DNA of 64,000 nucleotides from Rhodothermaceae bacterium (GCA_009838195.1 VXSC01000036.1:157300-221299), one strand, 5' to 3'; shown: positions 32,982 through 47,710, counted from the stretch's first letter. The notes: a model not told the origin generated them from the letters alone. A program made the numbers and translations.

Positions 32982-33211
32982 GACTCTCTGGAGTTGTTGA
33001 ATACCTAAGCCTATAAGTTAGCACAATTGTTCGGCTTTTGCACGATCAATTATCTATCACCGTGCCTGGAACTCAAATCAGGGACAGGGCAGGCTGCTGC
33101 AATCAGTCATTCACATAAATCCTGGTGATTTCTGTCGGGCAAGATGCCGGTCTGATGCAACGAATGCCCTATATTTCAAGTTCTCATGAATCACGACTAG
33201 AGACCTGTAGC

Positions 33212-34744
33212 ATGGCACTTCGATTTCGCAATTTCCTGACCCTGTCAGTCATCCTCGTCTGCTTTGGTCATTACCAAAGCACGGCCCAAGAAGTGACGTA
33301 TCAGGAGCTATTTCGACCGCAATTCCATTTCTCACCCGCCATCAACTGGATGAATGACCCAAACGGGATGGTGTATTATGATGGAGAGTACCACCTTTTT
33401 TACCAGCACAACCCCGAAGGTATTCGATGGGGACACATGAGCTGGGGCCACGCAATCAGCACAGATTTGGTCCACTGGACGCACATGCCACTTGCACTCC
33501 CAGAGACGGATAGCACGATGGCATTTTCTGGAAGTGCCGTGGTAGACTGGCAGAATACATCCGGCTTCTCTACTTCCGAAGAACCTCCCCTAGTTGCCAT
33601 CTATACCGCACATTACCCCGACCAGAGAAAACAAGCGCAATATCTTGCTTATAGTAATGACCGCGGAAGAACATGGATACCCTATGAAAATAACCCCGTA
33701 CTTGATATTGGGATGGCGGACTTCAGGGATCCAAAGGTGTTCTGGTATGCCCCCGAGGAAAAATGGGTCATGGTTATCGCGTTATCCCTTGAGCGAAAAC
33801 TCCACTTCTATGAATCCAGGGACCTAAAGGAATGGAATTTTTTAAGCTCCTTCGGACCTGCTGGCAATGCAGACGGGATTTGGGAATGTCCCGATCTATT
33901 TGAGCTGGATATAGAGAATGAGCCGGGCGTGTCGCGCTGGGTACTTGAGGTGGATCAGGGAAGCGAGGCGATCGCGGGAGGATCCGGTGGCCAATACTTC
34001 GTGGGAGACTTTGATGGGACGACCTTCACGCCAGGGCATTCGGATACACGTTGGGTGGACTACGGAAAAGATTTCTATGCTGCTGTGTCCTGGTCAGATG
34101 TACCGGCAGACGACGGACGTAGGATTTGGTTGGGATGGATGAACAACTGGTTGTACGCAAACGATATTCCGACCTACCCATGGCGAAGTGCGCAAAGCAT
34201 TCCACGTACATTAACCCTGCGGCGCATCGACGATGAACTGCACCTAGTCCAGCGCCCTGTGGAAGAATTACAGACCTTGCGCCGAGATCAATTGCGGATC
34301 GAAGATCAGATTCTCACTGGTGTCATGGATCTTGGAGAAGCGTTTGCTAGGAAGTCGATGGAGCTTCTGGTTGAATTCGAGATCGGAGATAGCGACGAGG
34401 TTGGCCTTCGTGTTCACACTTCAGATGACGAGGCGACCGAGGTCAGCTTTAACTTCCTGCGCGGAACGATTTCTGTTAATCGCCGCGAGTCAGGGAAGAT
34501 AGATTTTCACCCGACCTTTTCGGGACACTATCATGGCCCGGTACATGGATTTAAAACCCGGGTCCAACTGCATATTTTTGTGGACTGGTCTTCCATTGAA
34601 GTATTTGCCGAGGATGGGGCCGTTGTTTTTACGAACCAGATCTTCCCCGCAATGGAGAGTAACCGTCTGGAGCTCTACGCAAAAGGAGGTCCGGCACGTT
34701 TGGTATCACTGGATGTCTGGACACTGGACTCAATCTGGAAATAG
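33212..34744 (+). CDS. Glycoside hydrolase family 32 (beta-fructofuranosidase / levanase / inulinase)
   Basis: WMNDPNGMVYYDGEYHLFYQHNP (nucleophile Asp), FRDPKVFW (RDP) and WECPDLF (acid/base Glu) motifs. Signal peptide from ATG 33212. Confidence 0.9.
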   Translation: MALRFRNFLTLSVILVCFGHYQSTAQEVTYQELFRPQFHFSPAINWMNDPNGMVYYDGEYHLFYQHNPEGIRWGHMSWGHAISTDLVHWTHMPLALPETDSTMAFSGSAVVDWQNTSGFSTSEEPPLVAIYTAHYPDQRKQAQYLAYSNDRGRTWIPYENNPVLDIGMADFRDPKVFWYAPEEKWVMVIALSLERKLHFYESRDLKEWNFLSSFGPAGNADGIWECPDLFELDIENEPGVSRWVLEVDQGSEAIAGGSGGQYFVGDFDGTTFTPGHSDTRWVDYGKDFYAAVSWSDVPADDGRRIWLGWMNNWLYANDIPTYPWRSAQSIPRTLTLRRIDDELHLVQRPVEELQTLRRDQLRIEDQILTGVMDLGEAFARKSMELLVEFEIGDSDEVGLRVHTSDDEATEVSFNFLRGTISVNRRESGKIDFHPTFSGHYHGPVHGFKTRVQLHIFVDWSSIEVFAEDGAVVFTNQIFPAMESNRLELYAKGGPARLVSLDVWTLDSIWK

Positions 34745-35103: not shown

Positions 35104-38100
35104 TCACCATATTCTTCTTAATTGCAGGCGTATTTGATGCTGGAATTGGGTTTTTTCCGTCATCGAGTCTCGTCCGGTTGCTCCAACAAAGAGTCGAAGG
35201 TGAGTTGGATTCGTGTGTGCGAATGCGAATTCCCAGCCCATTTGATACCTTCGTCGCGATTCCCGCCATTCAAGGCCAACTTCTGGTTGGGTAACGAGCC
35301 TTCCCCTCAGGACTTTGAAGCCATAGCCTGCTTCCAGCCTGAAGTCCCCGGGTCCAAACTTGCCGGAATCCGATGCATCCATGAAATGCGTTTCCAGGGT
35401 TTCTGCCCGCAGGAGGCGGTCCGTCCCACCGAACACCTCGGTGCCCATGGTTTGCTCTAGGCGGACATGGATGCCAGATTCAGAGTAAGGGGTCGGATCC
35501 CAGATGACTGCCGCCACCATTCCCTGCTCGTGCAGGCCTGGTGCTTGATGGGTCAATACGCCGCGTGCCTGTACTTCCATGCTCAGCCCCCGAGTCGACG
35601 TAGACACGACCAGTCCCGCGCTCATATCTATCCCGAAGCCCGTGTCTGCATCTCCTCCGTCATGCCGAACGGCTATCTCCAGGGCGGGCTCAATCCGTAC
35701 ATCACGCCCTAGTTGCATGCCACGCACGGTTCCTTTGAGCCCCAGACGCAGGCGTGTCATCTGGGCAACATCCCGTGAGAGTGCCTCGGTCTGACTCGCG
35801 GTGGTTCGTACCACCAAGGCGTCCGAGCGTAGCCCCAGTTCCAGTCGGCTGGCAATCGTCCGAACACGCCCATAGACACCCCCGCCGCCCATCATCAGAT
35901 GCAGGGGGCTCTGAAAACGCCGCGCACCTCCTCCGTCCAGCGTCAGGTCTCCGCGTCCATACCCTGTCACTGCCCAGACTCGTACACGGGAACTGATCAC
36001 ATAACAGACATTCGGATAGACTCCGGTCAGTCGTCCTGAAACCTGTCCGCTGTCCGATCCAAAATCATAGCCTCCGTCTGCATTCGTATAGTTTGCCAGA
36101 ACACCCAGTGAGATACCGTGCCGCCGCCAATTTGCCCCCACCATGCCGCTAGTTATTACCCCGTCTATCTTTGAAGCATTTTCTGAACCTTGGAACCGCG
36201 AGCGGGCTCCCTGTCCCCAGAAGGTAACCCCCTGGTCTGCTTCCGGATTCCCAACATGCCGGAAAGATGTTCCCCTCACCAGATTAGGCTGAATCAGCGT
36301 GTGAGTCATCACCGGCCCTGATTCGCCACTACTGGGGACGATCGAATCCAGATCCTTCCGCTTTAGACGCACGTAGTGGGGCAGAGATGACAGCGCGACG
36401 GGGTGTCCTGCCAGATAGACTCCATTGGGGCCAGGGCGTGACTGCCGCCCGTCGCACGCGGTTGCCTCCAGAATCTGATCCGCAACCACGCGCCCAAACC
36501 GAGCCATCCACGCCTGACGGATTCGTCCAGTTTGCAATACTTCACGCGGGGAACTGCTCAGATCTTCTGAAAATCCCGCGTCATCCAGAAACCGGACCCG
36601 AACCACTAGACGTGCACCTACATCCGCCGCCACCGGAACATACGTGTCTGCATCTGCACCTGAAATCGGAAGCGGCTGCCTCGCCTTCATCCGAAACCAT
36701 TGATAGCGGTAGTTATAAGGCGGACTGCCTCGCTCTGCGTTACTGGTTCCATCCACATCCGTGATCTCTTGCGTGGACACCCGAAGCGGCTCGCCCACCT
36801 GCATGTACCCGAGGATTTCGGGCTGTCCCGTAGCGGCGTCATTGACCGATTCCACAACAACCGTCAACGTAGCCGACGAATGGCTCTCCAATGTCCCATC
36901 GCTCACCTGAAAGGTGAAACTCGTGTACGGCAGCCCATACCCATCTACCACCGGCACAAACACCAACGCTCCCACACCAATCTGCTCAACCGCCACCAGC
37001 GTATTGGCGACCACCTCGGTTCCCTCCAATGTGAGCGTGCCGACCTGTGGGCGCGCCGTTATTCGGACCCCTCTCAATGGATCTCCATCCGGGTCACTAT
37101 ACCCGAAGTCTGAGACCTGAAACCGGTACGGAGTATCCTCTATTGCCGTCACCGTGACATCTCTGGCAACGGGCGCCGTCTCGGTCTGATTGGTGATCGT
37201 GAGTACAATCTCCGCTGGAGGCGTTATACCTTGGGCATTGGTCGCGGCTCCCTGTACCGTGACCATTTTGTCCGCAGTATGCACATCATTATCCACCGCG
37301 GTGATCGTCACCTCTCCCGTACTGGTCGTTGCTCCGGCCGCAATCGTGAGCGTCCGGTTGGAGCTCAGCGAATAGTCAGATGTGGTGGCCGGTTCCTGAG
37401 GCTGTACGGTGATCGTCACCGCAGTCTCTTCACTGGATGGCCGGTCCAGACGTGCCGTGACGGTCGAAACGCCCCCGGCTTCGCTGATGGATGCAGGAGA
37501 CACGGTCAGCGTTGCCACGGGGGCCGGATCCTCATCGGTGAGCATGAGCACGGTTCCGGTCACATTCATCCCCTCCACGGGCGTCGTCCCCGTAACCAAG
37601 ACCGTCTCATCAGGCTCGTCAATGTTATCTGGAGTTGGAGTAATGGTAAACCTCCCAGCCCCGGAAATCTGATCCGCCGAAATTGTGATATCAAAGGACG
37701 ACACTGCGCTGTAGTCGGTTCCTGCCGCAGCGATGCCATCCCCCACCGATACCGTTACCTCAGTGTCGGCCCCGCGCGCGACATCCAGCGTCGCAGTCAC
37801 GGTCACAGCCGTGCTTCCCGCATCTTCATTCACCTCAGATGGAGCGACCGCAAGCGCGACCCCCGTGGCCTCGTCATCATCAATTATCGTCAGCACGACC
37901 TCTGTGGAAGGGGGAATTCCCTGGGCGTTGACCGCGGTCCCCTGTACCATTACCTTCCTGTCCGCAGTATCAACCTGATTATCTATCGCGGTGATGGTCA
38001 CCTCCCCGATACTTATCGTACTTCCTGCAGCAATCGTTAGCATCGGGTTTGCGCTCAGCCTATAGTCGAACAAGGTGCGCAAATCCTGGGGCTCTGCAAA

Positions 38101-40872
38101 AATCGTCACCGTGGTCTCTTCACTGGATGGTCGGTCCAAACTTGCCGTTACGGTTGAAACGCCCCCGGCTTCGCTGATGGTTGCGGGAGACAAGGTCAGC
38201 GTCATGGTTGGAGATGGATCTTCGTCGGTGATCGTGAGCGTGGTTCCCGTCACGGCCAGAACACCCACCGAAGTCATCCCCGTAATCAGGACCGTCTCAT
38301 CGGGCTCGTCGATGTCATCCGCAGTCGGGACAAAGGCAAACGTCCCTGCCCCAGAGAACTGATTCGCCAAAATTGTAATTTCAATGGACGACACTGCGCT
38401 GTAGTCGGTTCCTGCCACAGCGGTGCCATCCCCCACCATCACCGTTACATCGGTGTCGGTGCTCCGCACAGCATCTAGCTTCGCCGTCACCACTACATCC
38501 ATGCTTCCCGCGTCTTCGTTCACCTCAGAAGGAGCAACCGTGAGCGTGATCTCGGAGGCCTCGTCATCATCGGCAATCGTCAACGTCACATTCGAAGGAC
38601 CGATAACTCCTTGCACATTCTGTGCTGAACCACCAACCTGAAACATCTTGTCCGGTAAATCAATCGTATTGTCTACCGCCGTAATTGTGACCTCCCCTGT
38701 ACTGGTTGTTGTATTCGCTGCGATCGTGAGCGTCGTGTTTTGACTCACAGCGTAGTCACTGGTCGTAGCAGGGGAATCCGGGACCACCGAAACCGCGACC
38801 GTCGTCTCCGCGCTGGACACTGCGCTCAGCGTCGCCGTGACCACCGTACGCCCACCCGCTTCCACAATGGTTGCCGGTGTTAATACCAAGGTCACCTCTG
38901 GAGACGGATTTTCGTCGAGTATCGTGAGAGTAGTTCCGGTCACGGCAAACCCCTCCACCGGCGTTGCCCCTGTGATCAGGACCCTCTCATTGGGCTCGTC
39001 AATGTCATCTGGAATTGGGGTGAAGGCAAAACTTCCTGCCCCGGATAACTGATTCGCCGAAATTGTAATATCAAAAGAAGACACTGCGCTGTAGTCGGTA
39101 CCAGCCACAGCGGTATTATCCCCCACCGTCACCTCGGTATCGGTGATCACGACGAGGCTGCCTGTTCGCCCGGATGCGGTTACATCTCCCACCGCGACCG
39201 TTACCTCAGTATCTGTGCCCCGCGCGGCATCGAGCGTCGCCGTCACCATCACATCCGTGCGTCCCGCGTCTTCATTCACTTTAGAGGGGACAACCATGAG
39301 CGTAATCCCGGAGGCCTCGTCATCATCGGTAATGGTCAACGTCACGCCCGAAGGACCCGTAACTCCTATTGCATTCTGCGCAGTGCCTCCAACCTGATAC
39401 GTCTTGTCCGGCGCATCAATCGAATTGTCTACTGCCGTGATCGTGACCACCCCCGTACTCAGCAGTTCCCCTGCCGCAATCGTGAGCGTTGTGTTTGAAC
39501 TCAAGGTATAATCACTGGTCGAGGCAGGAGAATCCGGGACCACTGACACCTCGACCGTCGTTACCGCGCCAGACTTTGCGTCCAGCTTAGCTGTGACCGC
39601 CGTACTCCCGCCTGCCTCAGGGATGACTGTTGACGTTAACATCAGGACCACCTCTTGGGTTGTACAGACCACGATAGGCGAATAACCAGTAATCGTGATC
39701 TTCCCTTCATTTACCAGATCAACGATCGTTTGAGGCAGGCAGATAATGGGATTACGGCCAAGCTCTACTGATAGCCCTTCAATTCCCTCAAAGATGTTCG
39801 CAGGCAGGCTGCTGAGAGAATTAGTTCTTAAGTTCAGCGTAGTTAAGCTGGAGAGTCCGTTAAGGAGATCCTCGTCTAGACTGGTGAGAGAATTAGAGCT
39901 TAAGTTCAACGTTACTATGCTCGAGAGTCCGTCGAAGAGATCCCCAGGCAGGCTGCTGAGAGAATTATTGTTCAAGTTCAGCGTTACCAAGCTGGAGAGC
40001 CCGTCAAAAAGATCCCCAGGCAGGCTGCTGAGAGAATTAAAGTGTAAGCTCAGCGTTACTAAGCTGGCGAGCCCGTCAAAAAGATCCTCGTCCAGACTGG
40101 TGAGACTATTAAAGTATAAGTACAGCGTTGTTAAGCTGGAGAGTCCGTCAAAGAGATCCTTATCCAGGCTGGTGAGACCACTGAAGCTTAAGTCCAGCGT
40201 TGTTAGGCTGGAGAGTCCGTCAAAGAGATCTGCAGGCGGGCTGCCGAGGGAATTGCTGCTCAAGTCCATTGTTACTAAGCTGGAGAGTCCGTCGAAGATA
40301 TCCACGTGAAGACTGGTCAGGGAATTCCCGTCCAAGGTTAGCGTTACTAAGCTGGAGAGTCCGTCAAAGATATCCTCATGCAAGCTGCTGAGAGAGTTGG
40401 ACCTTAAGTTCAGTGTTTCCAAGCTGGAGAGCCCGTCAAAGAGATCCTCCTCCAGACTGCTGAGAGAATTATTGTTCAAGTTCAGTGTTACCAAGCTGGA
40501 GAGTCCGTCAAAGAGTTCCTCGTCCAAGCTACTGAGAGAACTATTTCGTTGTAAGCTTAGCGTTGTTAAGCTGGAGAGTCCGTCAAAGAGTTCCTCATGC
40601 AAGCTGCTGAGAGAATTATTGTTTAAGTACAACGTGGCTAAGCCGGAGAGCCCGTCAAAATCATCTTCATCCAACGATGTGATACTCTTGTTGCTTAAAT
40701 CCAAGGTACTGACGCTTGATAACTGAGCTGAAGTAACTGCGTCGCATGTCAAACCACTTACATCTATTTCATCTAGTATTTCTGCTTCCACTTCAGCCGT
40801 CCGGTCACAAATATCTACTGTCTGGGCACGAGTATCAGGCACAAAGAAAAACAAGAAAAGGCTGAACACCAC
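35104..40872 (-). CDS. Giant surface protein: LRR array + 7 Calx-beta domains + cadherin/Ig-like modules + C-terminal autotransporter-like beta-barrel (1,922 aa)
   Basis: Uninterrupted 5.8-kb ORF. aa 55-375 carry 24-residue LRRs. aa 405-1227 are seven ~112-aa units with Calx-beta-like signatures (TSDY...LTIAAG...GEVTITAVDN..D..DK; AGTDYSAVSS...DDIDEPDETVLITG). aa 1450-1922 form an amphipathic beta-rich region (FWGQGARSRFQGS...GVYPNVCYV...VWAVTGYGRGDLTL...) ending RLQLRRIW. The start is GTG with no in-frame ATG upstream. Confidence 0.8.
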   Translation of the reverse strand: MVFSLFLFFFVPDTRAQTVDICDRTAEVEAEILDEIDVSGLTCDAVTSAQLSSVSTLDLSNKSITSLDEDDFDGLSGLATLYLNNNSLSSLHEELFDGLSSLTTLSLQRNSSLSSLDEELFDGLSSLVTLNLNNNSLSSLEEDLFDGLSSLETLNLRSNSLSSLHEDIFDGLSSLVTLTLDGNSLTSLHVDIFDGLSSLVTMDLSSNSLGSPPADLFDGLSSLTTLDLSFSGLTSLDKDLFDGLSSLTTLYLYFNSLTSLDEDLFDGLASLVTLSLHFNSLSSLPGDLFDGLSSLVTLNLNNNSLSSLPGDLFDGLSSIVTLNLSSNSLTSLDEDLLNGLSSLTTLNLRTNSLSSLPANIFEGIEGLSVELGRNPIICLPQTIVDLVNEGKITITGYSPIVVCTTQEVVLMLTSTVIPEAGGSTAVTAKLDAKSGAVTTVEVSVVPDSPASTSDYTLSSNTTLTIAAGELLSTGVVTITAVDNSIDAPDKTYQVGGTAQNAIGVTGPSGVTLTITDDDEASGITLMVVPSKVNEDAGRTDVMVTATLDAARGTDTEVTVAVGDVTASGRTGSLVVITDTEVTVGDNTAVAGTDYSAVSSFDITISANQLSGAGSFAFTPIPDDIDEPNERVLITGATPVEGFAVTGTTLTILDENPSPEVTLVLTPATIVEAGGRTVVTATLSAVSSAETTVAVSVVPDSPATTSDYAVSQNTTLTIAANTTTSTGEVTITAVDNTIDLPDKMFQVGGSAQNVQGVIGPSNVTLTIADDDEASEITLTVAPSEVNEDAGSMDVVVTAKLDAVRSTDTDVTVMVGDGTAVAGTDYSAVSSIEITILANQFSGAGTFAFVPTADDIDEPDETVLITGMTSVGVLAVTGTTLTITDEDPSPTMTLTLSPATISEAGGVSTVTASLDRPSSEETTVTIFAEPQDLRTLFDYRLSANPMLTIAAGSTISIGEVTITAIDNQVDTADRKVMVQGTAVNAQGIPPSTEVVLTIIDDDEATGVALAVAPSEVNEDAGSTAVTVTATLDVARGADTEVTVSVGDGIAAAGTDYSAVSSFDITISADQISGAGRFTITPTPDNIDEPDETVLVTGTTPVEGMNVTGTVLMLTDEDPAPVATLTVSPASISEAGGVSTVTARLDRPSSEETAVTITVQPQEPATTSDYSLSSNRTLTIAAGATTSTGEVTITAVDNDVHTADKMVTVQGAATNAQGITPPAEIVLTITNQTETAPVARDVTVTAIEDTPYRFQVSDFGYSDPDGDPLRGVRITARPQVGTLTLEGTEVVANTLVAVEQIGVGALVFVPVVDGYGLPYTSFTFQVSDGTLESHSSATLTVVVESVNDAATGQPEILGYMQVGEPLRVSTQEITDVDGTSNAERGSPPYNYRYQWFRMKARQPLPISGADADTYVPVAADVGARLVVRVRFLDDAGFSEDLSSSPREVLQTGRIRQAWMARFGRVVADQILEATACDGRQSRPGPNGVYLAGHPVALSSLPHYVRLKRKDLDSIVPSSGESGPVMTHTLIQPNLVRGTSFRHVGNPEADQGVTFWGQGARSRFQGSENASKIDGVITSGMVGANWRRHGISLGVLANYTNADGGYDFGSDSGQVSGRLTGVYPNVCYVISSRVRVWAVTGYGRGDLTLDGGGARRFQSPLHLMMGGGGVYGRVRTIASRLELGLRSDALVVRTTASQTEALSRDVAQMTRLRLGLKGTVRGMQLGRDVRIEPALEIAVRHDGGDADTGFGIDMSAGLVVSTSTRGLSMEVQARGVLTHQAPGLHEQGMVAAVIWDPTPYSESGIHVRLEQTMGTEVFGGTDRLLRAETLETHFMDASDSGKFGPGDFRLEAGYGFKVLRGRLVTQPEVGLEWRESRRRYQMGWEFAFAHTNPTHLRLFVGATGRDSMTEKTQFQHQIRLQLRRIW
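37192..39660 (-). repeat. Coding super-repeat: alternating A/B Calx-beta units, ~690-nt period, (A-B)x3 + A
   Basis: Recurring DNA blocks, e.g. gctgtagtcggttcctgcc[a/g]cagcg[g/a]tgccatcccccacc near 37711, 38398 and 39088. The protein units align along their full length. Confidence 0.85.
39748..40710 (-). repeat. Coding tandem repeat, 72-nt period, ~13 copies (LRR array)
   Basis: The core aagctggagagtccgtcaaagagatcc recurs about every 72 nt from ~39840 to ~40650 with few substitutions. It encodes LxxLxLxxNSLSSLxxDLFDGLSS. Confidence 0.9.
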
Positions 40873-41664
40873 GCCTAAGAAGCCGTGGAGAGATGAAATC
40901 TTCCCACAATTGAGGTATGTTACCCCGTTGTCATCTGACCTGAAAAATCACTGATTTTGAAAAAAATGTGCACCTTTTTCTTTCCTAAATAATACAGATG
41001 CCCCAAATAATGTGCAATAAATACTTCCAAACAGGTTTGATTTCAAATCTACTCGCCCTAGATTTCTGCGCCCAGCAATGTCCGCGCCTCCCATGTTGAT
41101 ATCCCCGCTACCCCTAATTCCAAACCATCAATCGTTGCCGGCTGGCCTGAGGTGAACGATACGCATTCCGTCACATCATATGATTCACCGTCGAAGCAGC
41201 CACATCGCTTCTCCATAGGTCAAACTACATGAAATGACGTAGCTTTACGAAATACATAGAGCCCTGTAGCCTTATCTGACGGTCGTCCTGCGATACCAGG
41301 GATGCAAACTAAGTACGCTTTGGAGTGATTAAGGAAGCTGACGACTAGAAATACAGCTGAGGATCTCCGGTAAAGACCAGTTCATTTTCCCAAGATCACA
41401 GGCGTTTTGAGCTTGTGTTTCGTATCAGTTAACGCGGGTAGCCCTTTGGGAGCAACCAATTGCCCCTACGTCTTGAACAGCTAGGAGGATCTGTTCCCAA
41501 GGGAATGCCGTGATTCCATCTCGGGAAATTTGTGCCATAGAGTACTGATAAAGGGACAGTCAAAACGTCACAGGGACCGATCGGATTTCGCTTTCGATTG
41601 CATGCAATGAGCCTCCTTTCTCTGGCCTGAGTCTATGATCTTTACCTCATCAGGTATAAAATCA

Positions 41665-42537
41665 TCACTGCTCAGGGTTCGGCATCGAGGCGATCCGTGC
41701 GCCACTACTGGGCATGACGAGTCGGCTTTCGTCAAACGGCTGGGTATATGAATGTTCACTGGAGGCTGCTTCATAGTATTTATCCCCCTTCGCTCCCCCT
41801 GAAAACCCATATCCTTCAAACTGGGATGGAACCGTCAATCCGTCAACGGTCACGTAGCCCTTATAATACAAGAGGGTTTCCGACATATTCTCATCAATTG
41901 CCGGCCGACCCCGTCCAAACGTGGATCGATACCGAAGAGCATTGACCATATAGGTCTCGGGATGAATGTAGAGCGTGTAATGATCTCCTGGAGCATCCCC
42001 TACTCCATCATCGAATGTTGCACGCACGAGATAATGCTCTACACTGTCCAAGAGTGCCGGAGCCAGTACTTCATATTGAATCCCCGGGTCGGCAAGGATA
42101 AAGGGAATGGACTGAAAATAATAGCCGGTGGTGGCCATGAATCGGGGATTCGTCTCCAGTGAATCTGGGTAAACCCATGCATCGGTGCCATCCCACACCA
42201 TTTGGGCTCCATCTGGTGCTGGCTCGCCTCCCATAGACAGGACATCGTGATACACTTGGCGGGTCCGGTTGTGAGCAACCATTTTCGATTCAAGTCCACC
42301 TCCAAATCCCCAGACATAGCTGCTTGTCTCGGCGTTGTGCCAGGCATCTAGTCCCCCATGTGCCTCTATCGCACGCAGCACCATCTGTCCCCCTTCCGTC
42401 GCCATAAGACGCGCCTCTGTTTCTTCCGTCAATGGATTGTCTTCCAGTTCATCCGTCATAGCCGAATCCGTTTCTGGATTGCTACAGCCAAGGATGAGCG
42501 TCAAGGCGAAGAGAACCGTACTGAATATCCGCATCAA
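41665..42537 (-). CDS. Lipoprotein of unknown function
   Basis: Lipobox LTLILGCS; beta-rich mature region with no motif I can name confidently. Confidence 0.6.
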   Translation of the reverse strand: MMRIFSTVLFALTLILGCSNPETDSAMTDELEDNPLTEETEARLMATEGGQMVLRAIEAHGGLDAWHNAETSSYVWGFGGGLESKMVAHNRTRQVYHDVLSMGGEPAPDGAQMVWDGTDAWVYPDSLETNPRFMATTGYYFQSIPFILADPGIQYEVLAPALLDSVEHYLVRATFDDGVGDAPGDHYTLYIHPETYMVNALRYRSTFGRGRPAIDENMSETLLYYKGYVTVDGLTVPSQFEGYGFSGGAKGDKYYEAASSEHSYTQPFDESRLVMPSSGARIASMPNPEQ

Positions 42538-44488: not shown

Positions 44489-47400
44489 ATGCCTTACATC
44501 CTCCGCGCATTTTTTGCGCTTGCACTTCTGATTACATTCCCCGTTTCAGCGCAAGACAACTTGGTCAGCGAGACCGATTTCTCCGCTCTGAAACTTCGTA
44601 ATGTTGGCCCTGCATTTACTTCTGGCCGCATTGCTGACATTGCGATGCATCCTGAAGATGATAACGTGTGGTACGTTGCCGTAGGCAGTGGAGGAGTATG
44701 GAAAACGATCAATGCCGGAACCACTTGGGAGTCGCTCTTTGACGGTCAGGGGTCCTATTCAATTGGGGCGATAACCCTTGATTCGAGAAACCCACATACT
44801 GTTTGGGTGGGAACTGGTGAAAATGTCGGCGGACGGCATGTGGGCTACGGCGATGGCATCTACCGTAGCGATGACGGAGGCAATACCTGGAATAATATGG
44901 GCCTGAAGGAATCGAGGCATATCTCCCGGATCATTGTGCATCCCGATAATAGCGATGTGATCTGGGTGGCTGCACAGGGTCCACTATGGAACAGTGGTGG
45001 TGAGCGTGGACTCTATATGAGTACTGATGGTGGTGAGTCATGGGAACGCACACTCGGGGACGATGAATGGGTTGGGGTTACGGATTTAGTCATTGATCCG
45101 CGGGATCCCGCAGTTCTTTATGCCGCTACCTGGCAAAGACACAGGAATGTAGCCGCCTATATGGGAGGGGGGCCCGGCAGCGGACTCCACAGAAGCACGG
45201 ATGGTGGGCAAACCTGGACCCCGCTGACCAATGGTATCCCAAAGTCGAACCTAGGTAAGATCGGACTCGCGATTTCGCCGCAGAATCCCGACATCGTCTA
45301 TGCAGCCATCGAACTCGACTTGACGACGGGTGGCATTTTCATGTCTGCCGACCGGGGGGCATCCTGGGAGAAGATGTCTGATGCAGTGGCTGGCGCAACC
45401 GGTCCACACTATTACCAGGAGCTCTATGCCTCTCCGCACAAAGAGGGAACGATATACCTCATGGATGTGCGTGTTCAGGTCTCCCACGATCATGGTCGTA
45501 CCATTTCGCTCCTGGAGAACACGACAGATAAACATGTGGATAACCATGCAATGGGATTCCGGATGGATGACCCTGACTACATTCTCATGGGAACAGATGG
45601 AGGGCTTTTTGAAACGTTCGATGGCACGGAGACCTGGCATTTTATCGCGAATCTGCCGGTTACTCAATACTACAAGGTGGCGGTTGATGATCAGGAACCC
45701 TTTTATCGCATCTTTGGCGGGACACAGGACAATGGCTCTCACGGTGGCCCTTCCCAAACCGATAACCAGCACGGCATCCGCAATGCTGACTGGTTCAAAA
45801 CCCTTGGAGGAGACGGACATCAATCTGCGACTGAGCCCGGGAATCCCGACATTATGTACGCGCAATCGCAGCAAGGACGATTGCACCGTGTAGATCTCCT
45901 CACCGGAGAACAGACCTTAATTCAGCCGCAGGCTGGTCTCGGTGAAAAACACGAAAGATATAACTGGGATGCCCCTATTCTAGTAAGCCCACACGAACCC
46001 ACCACCATCTATTTTGGATCCTATCGTGTCTGGAAATCAACGGACCGAGGAGACAGCTGGGTGGCAATCTCTGGAGATTTAACTCGCGATCAGGAGCGGC
46101 TTGCCCTTCCGATTATGGGGCATGTCCAGAGCTATAATAATCCCTGGGATTTAAATGCCATGTCGGTCTACAACACGATCACATCGCTGGCCGAGTCCCC
46201 CGTTGAAGCAGGTCTCCTGTATGTAGGTACCGACGACGGTCTGATTCAGATTTCCGAGGATGACGGCCAGAATTGGCGAAGCGTAGAGGTTGGCAGCATT
46301 GATGGAATTCCATCCACCGCATTTGTCAATCACGTGTATGCCGACCTGCACGATGCCGATGTTGTCTATGCAGCTCTTGACGACCACAAGTTTGGGGATC
46401 TCTCTCCCTATCTGATCAAGAGCAGTGATCGTGGCCGCTCCTGGACATCCATTGCAGAGAACTTGCCGGACCGAACCCTGATTTGGCGGATCGTACAGGA
46501 TCACGTAAACCCGAACCTGCTCTTTACTGCAACGGAATTTGGAATTTACTTTACCATTGACGGGGGAGACCAATGGATTAAGCTTGCTTCCGACGCGAAT
46601 ATTTCATTCCGCGACCTCGTGATCCAGCAGCGGGAAAATGATCTTGTTGGTGCATCCTTTGGACGCGGATTCTTTGTACTTGACGACTACACTCCGCTTC
46701 GCGAAATCAGCACAGAGCTTCTTTCTCAGGATGCTCATCTATTCTCACCGCGTACAACTAGACTGTATGTTGAGCGTGACGTCGCGGGAGGATCGCAGGG
46801 AACCAACTACTACGCCGCTCCCAATCCGCCCTACGGTGCAACGTTCACGTATTACCTCCGTGAAGGATCAAAGACGCTTCGGCAGATTCGTCGGGAAAGA
46901 GAAAAGAAGATTGGTGCTGGCGAAGATGTTCCGTTTCCTGGATGGGATGCACTTGAAGCGGAGGAAAATGAGGTTCCCGACAAGGTTTATGTAGTAATCA
47001 GAGATGCAGCGAACCAAGTGGCTGGTCGTGTCTCGGGTAGTACCTCCAAAGGGATGCACCGTGTAACCTGGAACCTGAGATATCCTTCTTCTGCTGTTGT
47101 TACCCCAGGGAATACAGGGAATAATTCAAGCCAGTACCTTGCTTCCCCCGGTACCTATTCTGCGACGCTGGTACGAGTCAGTGATGGCGTGGAATCCGTA
47201 CTGTCCGGCCCAGTTACTCTTGAGATCGTTCCGCTTCGTGAACCTGCCCTTGCGGGAAAAACCCCCGATGAAATCAACACATATCGAGCAAGAGCCGCCT
47301 CACTCATGCAGCGCGCCAGTCTGCTCTCAGGATCTGTCTCAGAGAACCTCGAATTACTTGAAGCAATGGAAGCAGCACATCTGCGCGCCCCGAATCCCTC

Positions 47401-47710
47401 GTCTGATTTAACCGCAGAGTTGCATTCTGCCCGATCCGCACTCCTTGAAATCAATCTCATCCTGAGTGGCTACGAGTCGAAAGAGGGGCCAGGTGAGCGG
47501 GATGCTCCGACGGTCATGTCAAGATTGTTTGTCGGACAAAGTGGGCTCCGAACTACCTACGGACCCACGGCACTCCACGAGCAATCACTGGACGCAGGAG
47601 AGGCGCAACTAGGGGATCTGGAATCCGCACTGACCTCCTTTGTGGAAACCGTACTGCCCGCTGTGACCAGTGCTTTGGAAGCGACCGGTGCACCTCCCAT
47701 CAGAGAGTAG
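44489..47710 (+). CDS. Secreted BNR/Asp-box repeat protein (sortilin/VPS10- or GH74-like double propeller)
   Basis: Signal peptide plus at least 8 Asp-box motifs SxDxGxxW: SDDGGNTW, STDGGESW, STDGGQTW, SADRGASW, STDRGDSW, SEDDGQNW, SSDRGRSW, TIDGGDQW. Confidence 0.8.
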   Translation: MPYILRAFFALALLITFPVSAQDNLVSETDFSALKLRNVGPAFTSGRIADIAMHPEDDNVWYVAVGSGGVWKTINAGTTWESLFDGQGSYSIGAITLDSRNPHTVWVGTGENVGGRHVGYGDGIYRSDDGGNTWNNMGLKESRHISRIIVHPDNSDVIWVAAQGPLWNSGGERGLYMSTDGGESWERTLGDDEWVGVTDLVIDPRDPAVLYAATWQRHRNVAAYMGGGPGSGLHRSTDGGQTWTPLTNGIPKSNLGKIGLAISPQNPDIVYAAIELDLTTGGIFMSADRGASWEKMSDAVAGATGPHYYQELYASPHKEGTIYLMDVRVQVSHDHGRTISLLENTTDKHVDNHAMGFRMDDPDYILMGTDGGLFETFDGTETWHFIANLPVTQYYKVAVDDQEPFYRIFGGTQDNGSHGGPSQTDNQHGIRNADWFKTLGGDGHQSATEPGNPDIMYAQSQQGRLHRVDLLTGEQTLIQPQAGLGEKHERYNWDAPILVSPHEPTTIYFGSYRVWKSTDRGDSWVAISGDLTRDQERLALPIMGHVQSYNNPWDLNAMSVYNTITSLAESPVEAGLLYVGTDDGLIQISEDDGQNWRSVEVGSIDGIPSTAFVNHVYADLHDADVVYAALDDHKFGDLSPYLIKSSDRGRSWTSIAENLPDRTLIWRIVQDHVNPNLLFTATEFGIYFTIDGGDQWIKLASDANISFRDLVIQQRENDLVGASFGRGFFVLDDYTPLREISTELLSQDAHLFSPRTTRLYVERDVAGGSQGTNYYAAPNPPYGATFTYYLREGSKTLRQIRREREKKIGAGEDVPFPGWDALEAEENEVPDKVYVVIRDAANQVAGRVSGSTSKGMHRVTWNLRYPSSAVVTPGNTGNNSSQYLASPGTYSATLVRVSDGVESVLSGPVTLEIVPLREPALAGKTPDEINTYRARAASLMQRASLLSGSVSENLELLEAMEAAHLRAPNPSSDLTAELHSARSALLEINLILSGYESKEGPGERDAPTVMSRLFVGQSGLRTTYGPTALHEQSLDAGEAQLGDLESALTSFVETVLPAVTSALEATGAPPIRE

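Follow-up and report, generated by a model that had tools for sequence, protein, structure and literature searches.

What does an array of leucine-rich repeats (LRRs) of the class known from animal receptors do in a bacterial gene, and do its repeats make that gene a length-variable locus? The question is raised by a 64,000-nucleotide stretch of DNA from a Rhodothermaceae bacterium (GCA_009838195.1, VXSC01000036.1:157300-221299), which is referred to here as the window and from whose first letter all positions are counted. A preliminary description of the window had placed near-identical 72-nt repeats encoding a cysteine-capped, metazoan-type LRR array at 39748-40710, an interval that spans the array plus part of its C-terminal cap. 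The array was found to be the N-terminal module of a single open reading frame (ORF) of 1,922 amino acids (aa) on the minus strand, at 35104-40872. With moderate confidence, we favor the reading that the repeats are the ligand-binding tip of a large surface protein, predicted to be anchored in the outer membrane, that would act as a host adhesin or recognition protein of the eukaryote-like kind.

In order, the protein consists of a signal-like peptide, an N-terminal cap (N-cap), 13 LRRs, a C-terminal cap (C-cap), seven Calx-beta-like domains, a cadherin/immunoglobulin (Ig)-like region, a helix, and a beta-barrel. Pfam searches returned LRR_8, Calx-beta, and Cadherin_4. The modules are located as follows; the confidence of AlphaFold2 (AF2) models is given as the predicted local distance difference test (pLDDT).

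35104-40872, minus strand: the whole gene, 1,922 aa, counted from the first GTG past an in-frame TGA at 40948-40950.
40825-40872, minus strand: putative hydrophobic signal-like peptide MVFSLFLFFFVPDTRA, short and with the basic n-region absent; predicted cut before QTVDICDRT.
40723-40824, minus strand: N-cap, aa 17-50, QTVDICDRTAEVEAEILDEIDVSGLTCDAVTSAQ, with C22 and C43; helical in the AF2 model, pLDDT above 90.
39787-40722, minus strand: 13 typical-class LRR units, aa 51-362, with a 72-nt period (unit 3 has 75 nt); Pfam LRR_8 at 8.3e-75, AF2 pLDDT about 98.
39664-39786, minus strand: degenerate 14th unit and C-cap, aa 363-403, GIEGLSVELGRNPIICLPQ...SPIVVC, with C378 and C403; AF2 pLDDT 76-83.
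37174-39663, minus strand: seven Calx-beta-like domains of about 115 aa, alternating between types A and B, aa 404-1233; Pfam Calx-beta.
36673-37173, minus strand: one cadherin-like domain of bacterial type and then an Ig-like domain, aa 1234-1400; Pfam matches to Cadherin_4 (8.9e-12) and Big_9.
36460-36528, minus strand: predicted alpha-helix before the barrel, aa 1449-1471, AWMARFGRvVAdQvLEA; AF2 pLDDT 85-89, conserved in 16 aligned homologues.
35107-36234, minus strand: predicted C-terminal beta-barrel, aa 1547-1922, ending in ...LQLRRIW; TIGR01414, long antiparallel strands in AF2, and Foldseek.

The array itself is largely as it had been described. Twelve of its 13 consecutive units have 24 residues and one has 25, with the consensus LSSLvTLxLxxNSLsSLxeDLFDG. 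Tandem Repeats Finder detected the repeat at 39805-40659 (period 72 nt, 11.8 copies, 77% matches), and a 27-mer core occurred 11 times at three or fewer mismatches, spaced by 72 nt and once by 75 nt, compared to zero matches in 100 shuffles. Calling the repeats near-identical was an overstatement. Whole units share on average 72% DNA identity (range 43-89%), or 74% across the 11 most regular units, and 66% identity at the protein level. Near-invariance is confined to the 27-nt core, which encodes (D)LFDGLSSL, and the longest exact in-register run common to two units is 30 nt. The plus-strand ORFs at 39746-40726 (63-187 aa, repetitive ...LESPSKRS...) are by-products of the repeat and not genes.

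Class membership was judged by the LRR classification of Kobe & Kajava. Ten of the 13 units matched the strict typical pattern LxxLxLxxNxLxxLxxxxFxxLxx, and none matched the bacterial 20/21-residue, SDS22-like, plant-specific, or TpLRR patterns (IRREKO gave one chance match). The units belong to the typical 24-residue class, as the preliminary description had stated. The closest solved structures by sequence were human LRRC15 (3.9e-69), followed by IGFALS, SHOC2, LGR4, LRRTM, and TLR3, and the Leptospira LRR proteins in the Protein Data Bank (PDB) reached only about 1e-29. An AF2 model of aa 17-425 had a pLDDT of 91.7 and a predicted template modeling score of 0.88. Since this model superposes on animal as well as bacterial LRR solenoids, the fold alone is uninformative on origin.

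Variation between the units is not evenly spread. Column entropy was 1.9-2.6 bits at the concave-face positions x2, x5, x7, and x8 of LxxLxLxxN and about 0-0.4 bits for the scaffold. Two loop positions are also variable among units; together with x2, x5, x7, and x8 of the highly conserved segment (the conserved LxxLxLxxNxL part of each unit), they span 1.8-2.6 bits. Because the between-unit variation concentrates at the exposed positions x2, x5, x7, and x8, the binding specificity of the predicted ligand-binding solenoid probably sits on its concave face.

The array is flanked by two caps that the preliminary description had likened to LRRNT and LRRCT, a likeness that did not hold up. The cap segments gave no match to Pfam LRRNT (PF01462), LRRNT_2, or LRRCT (PF01463), even at E=10. 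The N-cap has two cysteines 21 residues apart and is modeled as an alpha-helix (aa 26-36) followed by a short helix, in contrast to the four-cysteine CxnCxCxnC beta-hairpin of metazoan LRRNT. Similarly, the C-cap consists of NPIIC plus one cysteine 25 residues on, in contrast to the four-cysteine NPxxCxC...C...C of LRRCT. The caps are of a bacterial two-cysteine type. In 71 of the 120 top homologues, the N-cap motif was present as ICDRTxxV(R)xAIL, a second cysteine, two residues, and VT. That second cysteine, usually 19-20 residues past the first, was kept in 90 of 91 homologue occurrences and in all 63 genome-locus occurrences, and because it is so strongly co-conserved, a disulfide or an equivalent structural pair is likely. 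The C-cap pattern N.(I/L).CLP...C was rarer (7 of the 120), and four of its seven carriers (P0025, P0028, P0083, and P0084) have it at the junction from the LRR array to a Calx-beta-like domain. The 1,922 residues contain only six cysteines (22, 43, 378, 403, 1473, and 1623), and four of the five on the passenger side, upstream of the barrel, fall in the caps. Autotransporter passengers tolerate closely spaced cysteine pairs only, and the position of the four cap cysteines in two short loops would be compatible with this.

The C-terminus was characterized through alignment with 16 homologues, an AF2 model, and Foldseek. The NCBIfam model TIGR01414 (autotransporter barrel) scored 22.4 bits against a cutoff of 16. 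In the AF2 model of aa 1400-1922, a helix (model residues 50-72) is followed by long antiparallel strands, with pLDDT above 80 across most of residues 170-310. The top Foldseek matches in the PDB were the barrels of EstA, EspP, Hbp, BrkA, NalP, and AIDA-I (E of 3e-6 to 1e-3), with template modeling (TM) scores up to 0.64 when normalized by target length. Features conserved across the 16 homologues are AWMARFGR in the helix, VRHDGGDAETGFG within the barrel, and W or F as the last residue. From these models, we read the C-terminus as a type V-like translocator whose family is un-annotated in Pfam, and this autotransporter-like end lends support to the surface display that had been suggested for the repeats. 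A profile search showed that the same barrel terminates many giant Calx-beta proteins (up to about 7,000 aa), two of which also carry the N-cap and LRR modules; this search was swamped by Calx-beta columns, and its 111,419 matches are no measure of the size of the barrel family. Export by the type IX secretion system (T9SS) was rejected since the Por_Secre_tail is absent, though several LRR relatives have one. A type III secretion effector was also rejected, as the matches to SlrP and Xop were far under the cutoffs and covered the LRRs only.

The start of the gene is annotated differently from record to record: GTG at 40872 (1,922 aa), GTG at 40869 (1,921 aa), a GTG at codon 11 (1,912 aa), or an upstream ATT. 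No in-frame ATG follows the TGA at 40948-40950. An exact database look-up of the 1,922-aa translation gave no match, as gene callers place the start one GTG later; the resulting 1,921-aa form is recorded. A start at the codon-11 GTG would cut off the hydrophobic leader. In the relatives P0002 and P0012, a canonical signal peptide stops right before the same QTVDICDRT.

Together, these modules suggest how the protein could work. The short hydrophobic N-terminal peptide would carry it over the inner membrane, and the C-terminal helix and barrel, as modeled, would insert in the outer membrane and export the upstream passenger in a type V-like manner. The stalk of seven Calx-beta-like and cadherin/Ig-like domains would keep the 13-unit solenoid off the cell, and a two-cysteine cap would close each end of the solenoid, each pair probably forming a short-range disulfide (21- and 25-residue loops). 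The array would have originated by unit duplication, its partial homogeneity being kept by gene conversion between adjacent units, and in-frame loss of a unit may occur but would be rare. By analogy with what has been proposed for eukaryote-like LRR proteins of sponge symbionts, the role is likely that of attaching to, or being recognized by, host cells or matrix.

Several points weigh against this picture. Pfam gave no match on the C-terminal residues (about 520), including Autotransporter PF03797, and a PDB sequence search with the C-terminus matched nothing. The barrel model has a mean pLDDT of 63, with 12-16 strands and a low-confidence stretch at model residues 379-441. The passengers of classical autotransporters are beta-helices, not LRR/Calx arrays. 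The 16-residue leader is atypical, being short and without a basic n-region, and its start is annotated three ways; it does occupy the position of the relatives' signal peptide. Lastly, the sponge origin of the bacterium is inferred from the labels of samples and metagenome-assembled genomes (MAGs), not from metadata.

The records behind that inference are as follows. NCBI names the source of the protein 'Rhodothermaceae bacterium' (uncultured). The window is identical to the ENA scaffold ENGE20-1_SAMN12347679_METAG-scaffold_50 and matches the NCBI MAG GCA_009837125.1 except for a 100-N gap within the array; further copies of the gene are present in a ROBB21-1 sample and in ERZ25069412. The labels ENGE20-1 and ROBB21-1 would refer to two sponge metagenome studies, those of Engelberts et al. 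2020 and of Robbins et al. 2021.

The relatives of the LRR module were sought with aa 1-420. The best homologues had at most 57% identity and came mostly from prokaryote-sized metagenome contigs; the 60 best matches were all on prokaryote-sized contigs or carried bacterial partner domains (T9SS tail, PEP-CTERM, Calx-beta, He_PIG). Eukaryotic proteins ranked lower (P0061, P0066, and P0113, E about 1e-45 to 1e-54) in this search, whose scores are dominated by the LRRs and in which bacterial proteins already stood above eukaryotic ones. The N-cap motif was not found in the eukaryotic matches examined. A scan for back-translated ICDRTxxVRDAI in one genome for each of 185,579 species returned 66 matches at 63 loci, compared to about 0.3 expected by chance, as estimated from how degenerate the pattern is and how large the collection. 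All 66 were in uncultured MAGs, and roughly ten major lineages were represented: Dehalococcoidia, other Chloroflexota, Nitrospirales, several Gamma- and Alphaproteobacteria, Latescibacterota, Acidobacteria, Longimicrobiales, Ca. Palauibacter irciniicola, Rhodothermales, Binatia, and Spirochaetia. Sponge-derived names (Poriferihabitaceae, Spongiihabitans, irciniicola) are among them. Every match translated into the N-cap, and the second cysteine was present in all 63 that were readable for at least 42 residues downstream. The LRR family is large and bacterial, and its metazoan flavor is a matter of repeat class, not of origin. Taken as a claim about source, the label 'metazoan-type' is misleading, as the closest relatives are prokaryotic metagenome proteins with bacterial partner domains. 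On the record labels and the MAG names of relatives, this is a eukaryote-type repeat in an apparently sponge-associated prokaryote. Lateral transfer of LRR proteins among sponge symbionts, and their enrichment there, have been reported (PMC8163846), and the multi-phylum distribution of the N-cap agrees with this.

Some genomes carry the module more than once. In one Ca. Poriferihabitaceae MAG, at least nine separate genes open with an identical ICDRTxxVRDAI cap (L006, L008, L012, L029, L032, L035, L064, L067), which indicates that the capped LRR module has undergone a large expansion specific to this lineage. A complete 3.7-Mb Rhodothermales genome contains three tandem paralogues (L071:8001-17908) and comes from the same sample as the divergent strain L068 discussed below. 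The first of its genes encodes a 635-aa LRR and Calx protein (P0083), whose end resembles out-of-frame sequence, the second a 1,451-aa Calx protein ending in the same barrel (29% identity), and the third a 3,019-aa LRR and Calx protein. The first two may be a single gene split by a frameshift.

How the array came to be repetitive can be read from its codons. CTC is used at L1 in 12 of the 13 units, and adjacent serines are encoded by TCC and then AGC in nearly all of them. Because codon choice is conserved position by position, the units descend from one another by duplication and not by convergence. The array also appears to be partly homogenized. Strain L068 has 13 units in a gene that is 1.8% divergent from the window copy; its contig name, ctg830849_12x_l, suggests a long-read assembler. 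Seven of the 24 differences of L068 in the LRR region cluster in a 22-nt stretch of repeat 12, and each of them is the base found at the same position in repeat 13; the exact identity shared by these two repeats is thereby raised from 12 to 37 nt. This tract, together with a unit that is missing from another assembly, lies as follows.

39897-39918, minus strand: gene-conversion tract in repeat 12 of L068, with seven clustered differences.
40002-40073, minus strand: 72-nt unit missing in the assembly L004/P0129; its loss fuses units 10 and 11, and the junction shares 19 identical nt.

The 22-nt tract marks gene conversion between repeats 12 and 13. The concerted evolution that the preliminary description had proposed is supported by this tract and by the codon conservation. 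In homogeneity, the array ranks in the top 11-15% of the family without being extreme, the maximum being 84% DNA identity in a 21-unit array.

The deletion in L004/P0129 is exactly 72 nt and in frame, and the 19 shared nt leave its exact position uncertain over that length. It is the one contig of the 90% cluster with 12 units, compared to about 14 with 13 units; several of the latter are re-assemblies of the same samples and not all are independent. An NCBI assembly that shares both flanking single-nucleotide polymorphisms (SNPs) of L004 carries 13 units, which leaves two explanations for the 12-unit form, a minority allele or an error of assembly. At gene nt 472 of L004 (window about 40398), the conserved Asn of LRR 5 is changed to Tyr (N159Y in the 1,922-aa numbering), which is unusual at a structural position and may flag a mis-assembly or read error in that contig. 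Scaffold gaps of 100 N are present in NCBI MAG copies of the gene: those in L001 (GCA_009837125.1) and P0126/P0127 break inside the LRR array and that in L003 (GCA_009843425.1) in the Calx-beta region. Since such gaps split the gene or leave it unannotated, public annotations understate the LRR protein.

Could the gene instead be a contingency-type locus, in which recombination between units alters copy number and thereby the reach or antigenicity of a length-variable surface display? The in-frame loss of one unit at a 19-nt junction identity is what this explanation calls for, and the 12-unit allele is probably read-supported, in that a de Bruijn graph with k of at least 21 would not join units through 19 identical nt. 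Scaffold gaps inside the array in two NCBI MAG versions point the same way, and the Liberibacter protein LasAI is a precedent for an LRR autotransporter with a variable repeat number (PMC3708911). Yet about 14 contigs, including the 1.8%-divergent L068, stay at 13 units, and the only shorter form has a 13-unit counterpart with the same two flank SNPs. Moreover, the units are 72-74% identical with exact shared runs of at most 30 nt, compared to 93-100% identity in LasAI. Neither near-identical units nor frequent copy-number polymorphism was seen among these contigs, and the LRR gene is not a hypervariable locus. The length variation that had been predicted is minimal, with one assembly lacking one unit, and a contingency role is improbable. 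Recent acquisition of the LRR module from an animal host or another eukaryote by horizontal transfer seems to us very improbable. It would be in keeping with the metazoan proteins LRRC15, IGFALS, LGR4, and TLR3 as best solved-structure relatives and with the three eukaryotic proteins among the sequence matches, but the PDB is strongly skewed to animal proteins and the 60 best matches look prokaryotic. The two-cysteine CxRT N-cap is shared with most of the top homologues and not with the eukaryotic ones examined, no LRRNT or LRRCT was detected, and MAGs from roughly ten major bacterial lineages carry the module. Given that spread, any eukaryote-derived transfer would have been ancient.

Another possible explanation concerns the partner and not the protein: it could be an adhesin between bacteria or to matrix, acting in aggregation or biofilm, or a passenger that is released, with no part in host recognition. 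Calx-beta/cadherin-like stalks are typical of bacterial biofilm and aggregation adhesins, and many autotransporter passengers are cleaved after export. Robbins et al. noted that the adhesion domains of sponge symbionts could mediate attachment between bacteria (PMC8163846). That the N-cap family is confined to MAGs from host-associated lineages favors a host role, although a role inside a dense symbiont community is still compatible with it. We consider this explanation unlikely, though it deserves to be kept in view, and retain the reading of the repeats as the tip of a host adhesin or recognition protein.

Comparison with known systems shows where the protein is familiar and where it departs. 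The ectodomains of metazoan LRRC15, IGFALS, LRRTM2, LGR4/5, TLR3, and the Nogo receptor have the same 24-residue LxxLxLxxNxLxxLxxxxFxxLxx unit, and LRRTM2 and the predicted solenoid can be superposed at 1.5 A (272 columns, 43% identity). Unlike these, the protein has two-cysteine caps with a helical N-cap, a bacterial Calx-beta stalk, a predicted outer-membrane barrel, and bacterial nearest homologues. The Leptospira LRR proteins (LIC10831, LIC11098, LIC12759) and the Listeria internalins are likewise bacterial surface or secreted LRR solenoids, and LIC10831 matches the LRR model structurally (TM score of 0.87, normalized by target length), but repeat classes, lengths, caps, and anchoring differ and the sequence similarity is weaker (about 1e-29). 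The predicted barrel, preceded by a helix and ending in an aromatic residue, resembles those of the type Va autotransporters EspP, Hbp, BrkA, NalP, AIDA-I, and EstA. It differs from them in giving no match to PF03797 and in its greater length (about 375 aa), and its passenger combines an LRR solenoid with Ig-like domains in place of a beta-helix. The LasAI/HyvI protein of Ca. Liberibacter asiaticus is an autotransporter with a tandem LRR passenger, for which repeat indels between isolates have been reported (PMC3708911). Its repeats are of a different, longer unit, 93-100% identical in DNA, and prophage-encoded, whereas the units here are 72-74% identical, chromosomal, of the typical class, and almost fixed in copy number. 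In setting, a likeness exists to the eukaryote-like LRR proteins that Robbins et al. (2021, PMC8163846) described for sponge symbionts, with which the gene shares an LRR protein, an apparently sponge-associated MAG, and a family that extends over many phyla. Published work on such proteins has been based on Pfam domain counts per genome, and their secretion routes were described as unclear (PMC8163846). In the literature searched, no description was found of the CxRT...C cap, the LRR/Calx-beta/barrel architecture, the barrel family, or type V-like export.

Other features of the gene and its surroundings were also recorded. G+C content is 55-58% over the Calx-beta and barrel regions and 47.5% over the LRR region and upstream spacer, compared to about 50-51% for the window (36001-42000 profiled); this shift is consistent with a mosaic origin of the modules. 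An indel in the stalk and three neighboring genes are located as follows.

39127-39192, minus strand: 66-nt (22-aa) in-frame insertion, aa 561-582, in the second Calx-like domain; absent from strain L068/P0130.
33125-34744: GH32 fructan hydrolase gene, convergent with the LRR gene.
41665-42537: 290-aa ORF with a lipobox-like LILGC and no Pfam match.
44489-47710: gene for a 1,073-aa Sortilin/BNR-repeat protein.

The 66-nt insertion is bordered by a repeated TEVTV.VGD, lacks an equivalent in B2 and B3, the paralogous domains, and is a second indel polymorphism of the LRR gene. An Rfam scan around the gene, including the 790-nt upstream spacer, gave no match, and promoter and terminator sites near it were no more numerous than in shuffled controls.

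What does the locus mean for these bacteria? The LRR gene belongs to a known eukaryote-like group, with an unusual architecture, and leaves knowledge of LRR classes unchanged. Sponge symbionts are rich in eukaryote-like LRR proteins, and the locus provides a concrete, testable example of one, with a predicted export route through an autotransporter-like C-terminal barrel, a stalk, a capped LRR tip with a variable face, and a sequence signature. A broader and more speculative idea, which we put forward only tentatively, is that the CxRT...C-capped LRR cassette is a mobile recognition module specific to marine-invertebrate (sponge) holobionts, spread over roughly ten lineages, diversified on its concave face, homogenized in its scaffold by gene conversion, and shown on un-annotated type V-like barrels that otherwise bear giant Calx-beta arrays. 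If this were true, the cassette would be a bacterial counterpart of animal LRR receptors that engages the sponge host. If the ICDRTxxVRDAI...C signature and the barrel family are upheld, they could serve as markers for mining host-interaction genes, and the LRR domain would lend itself to binding experiments.

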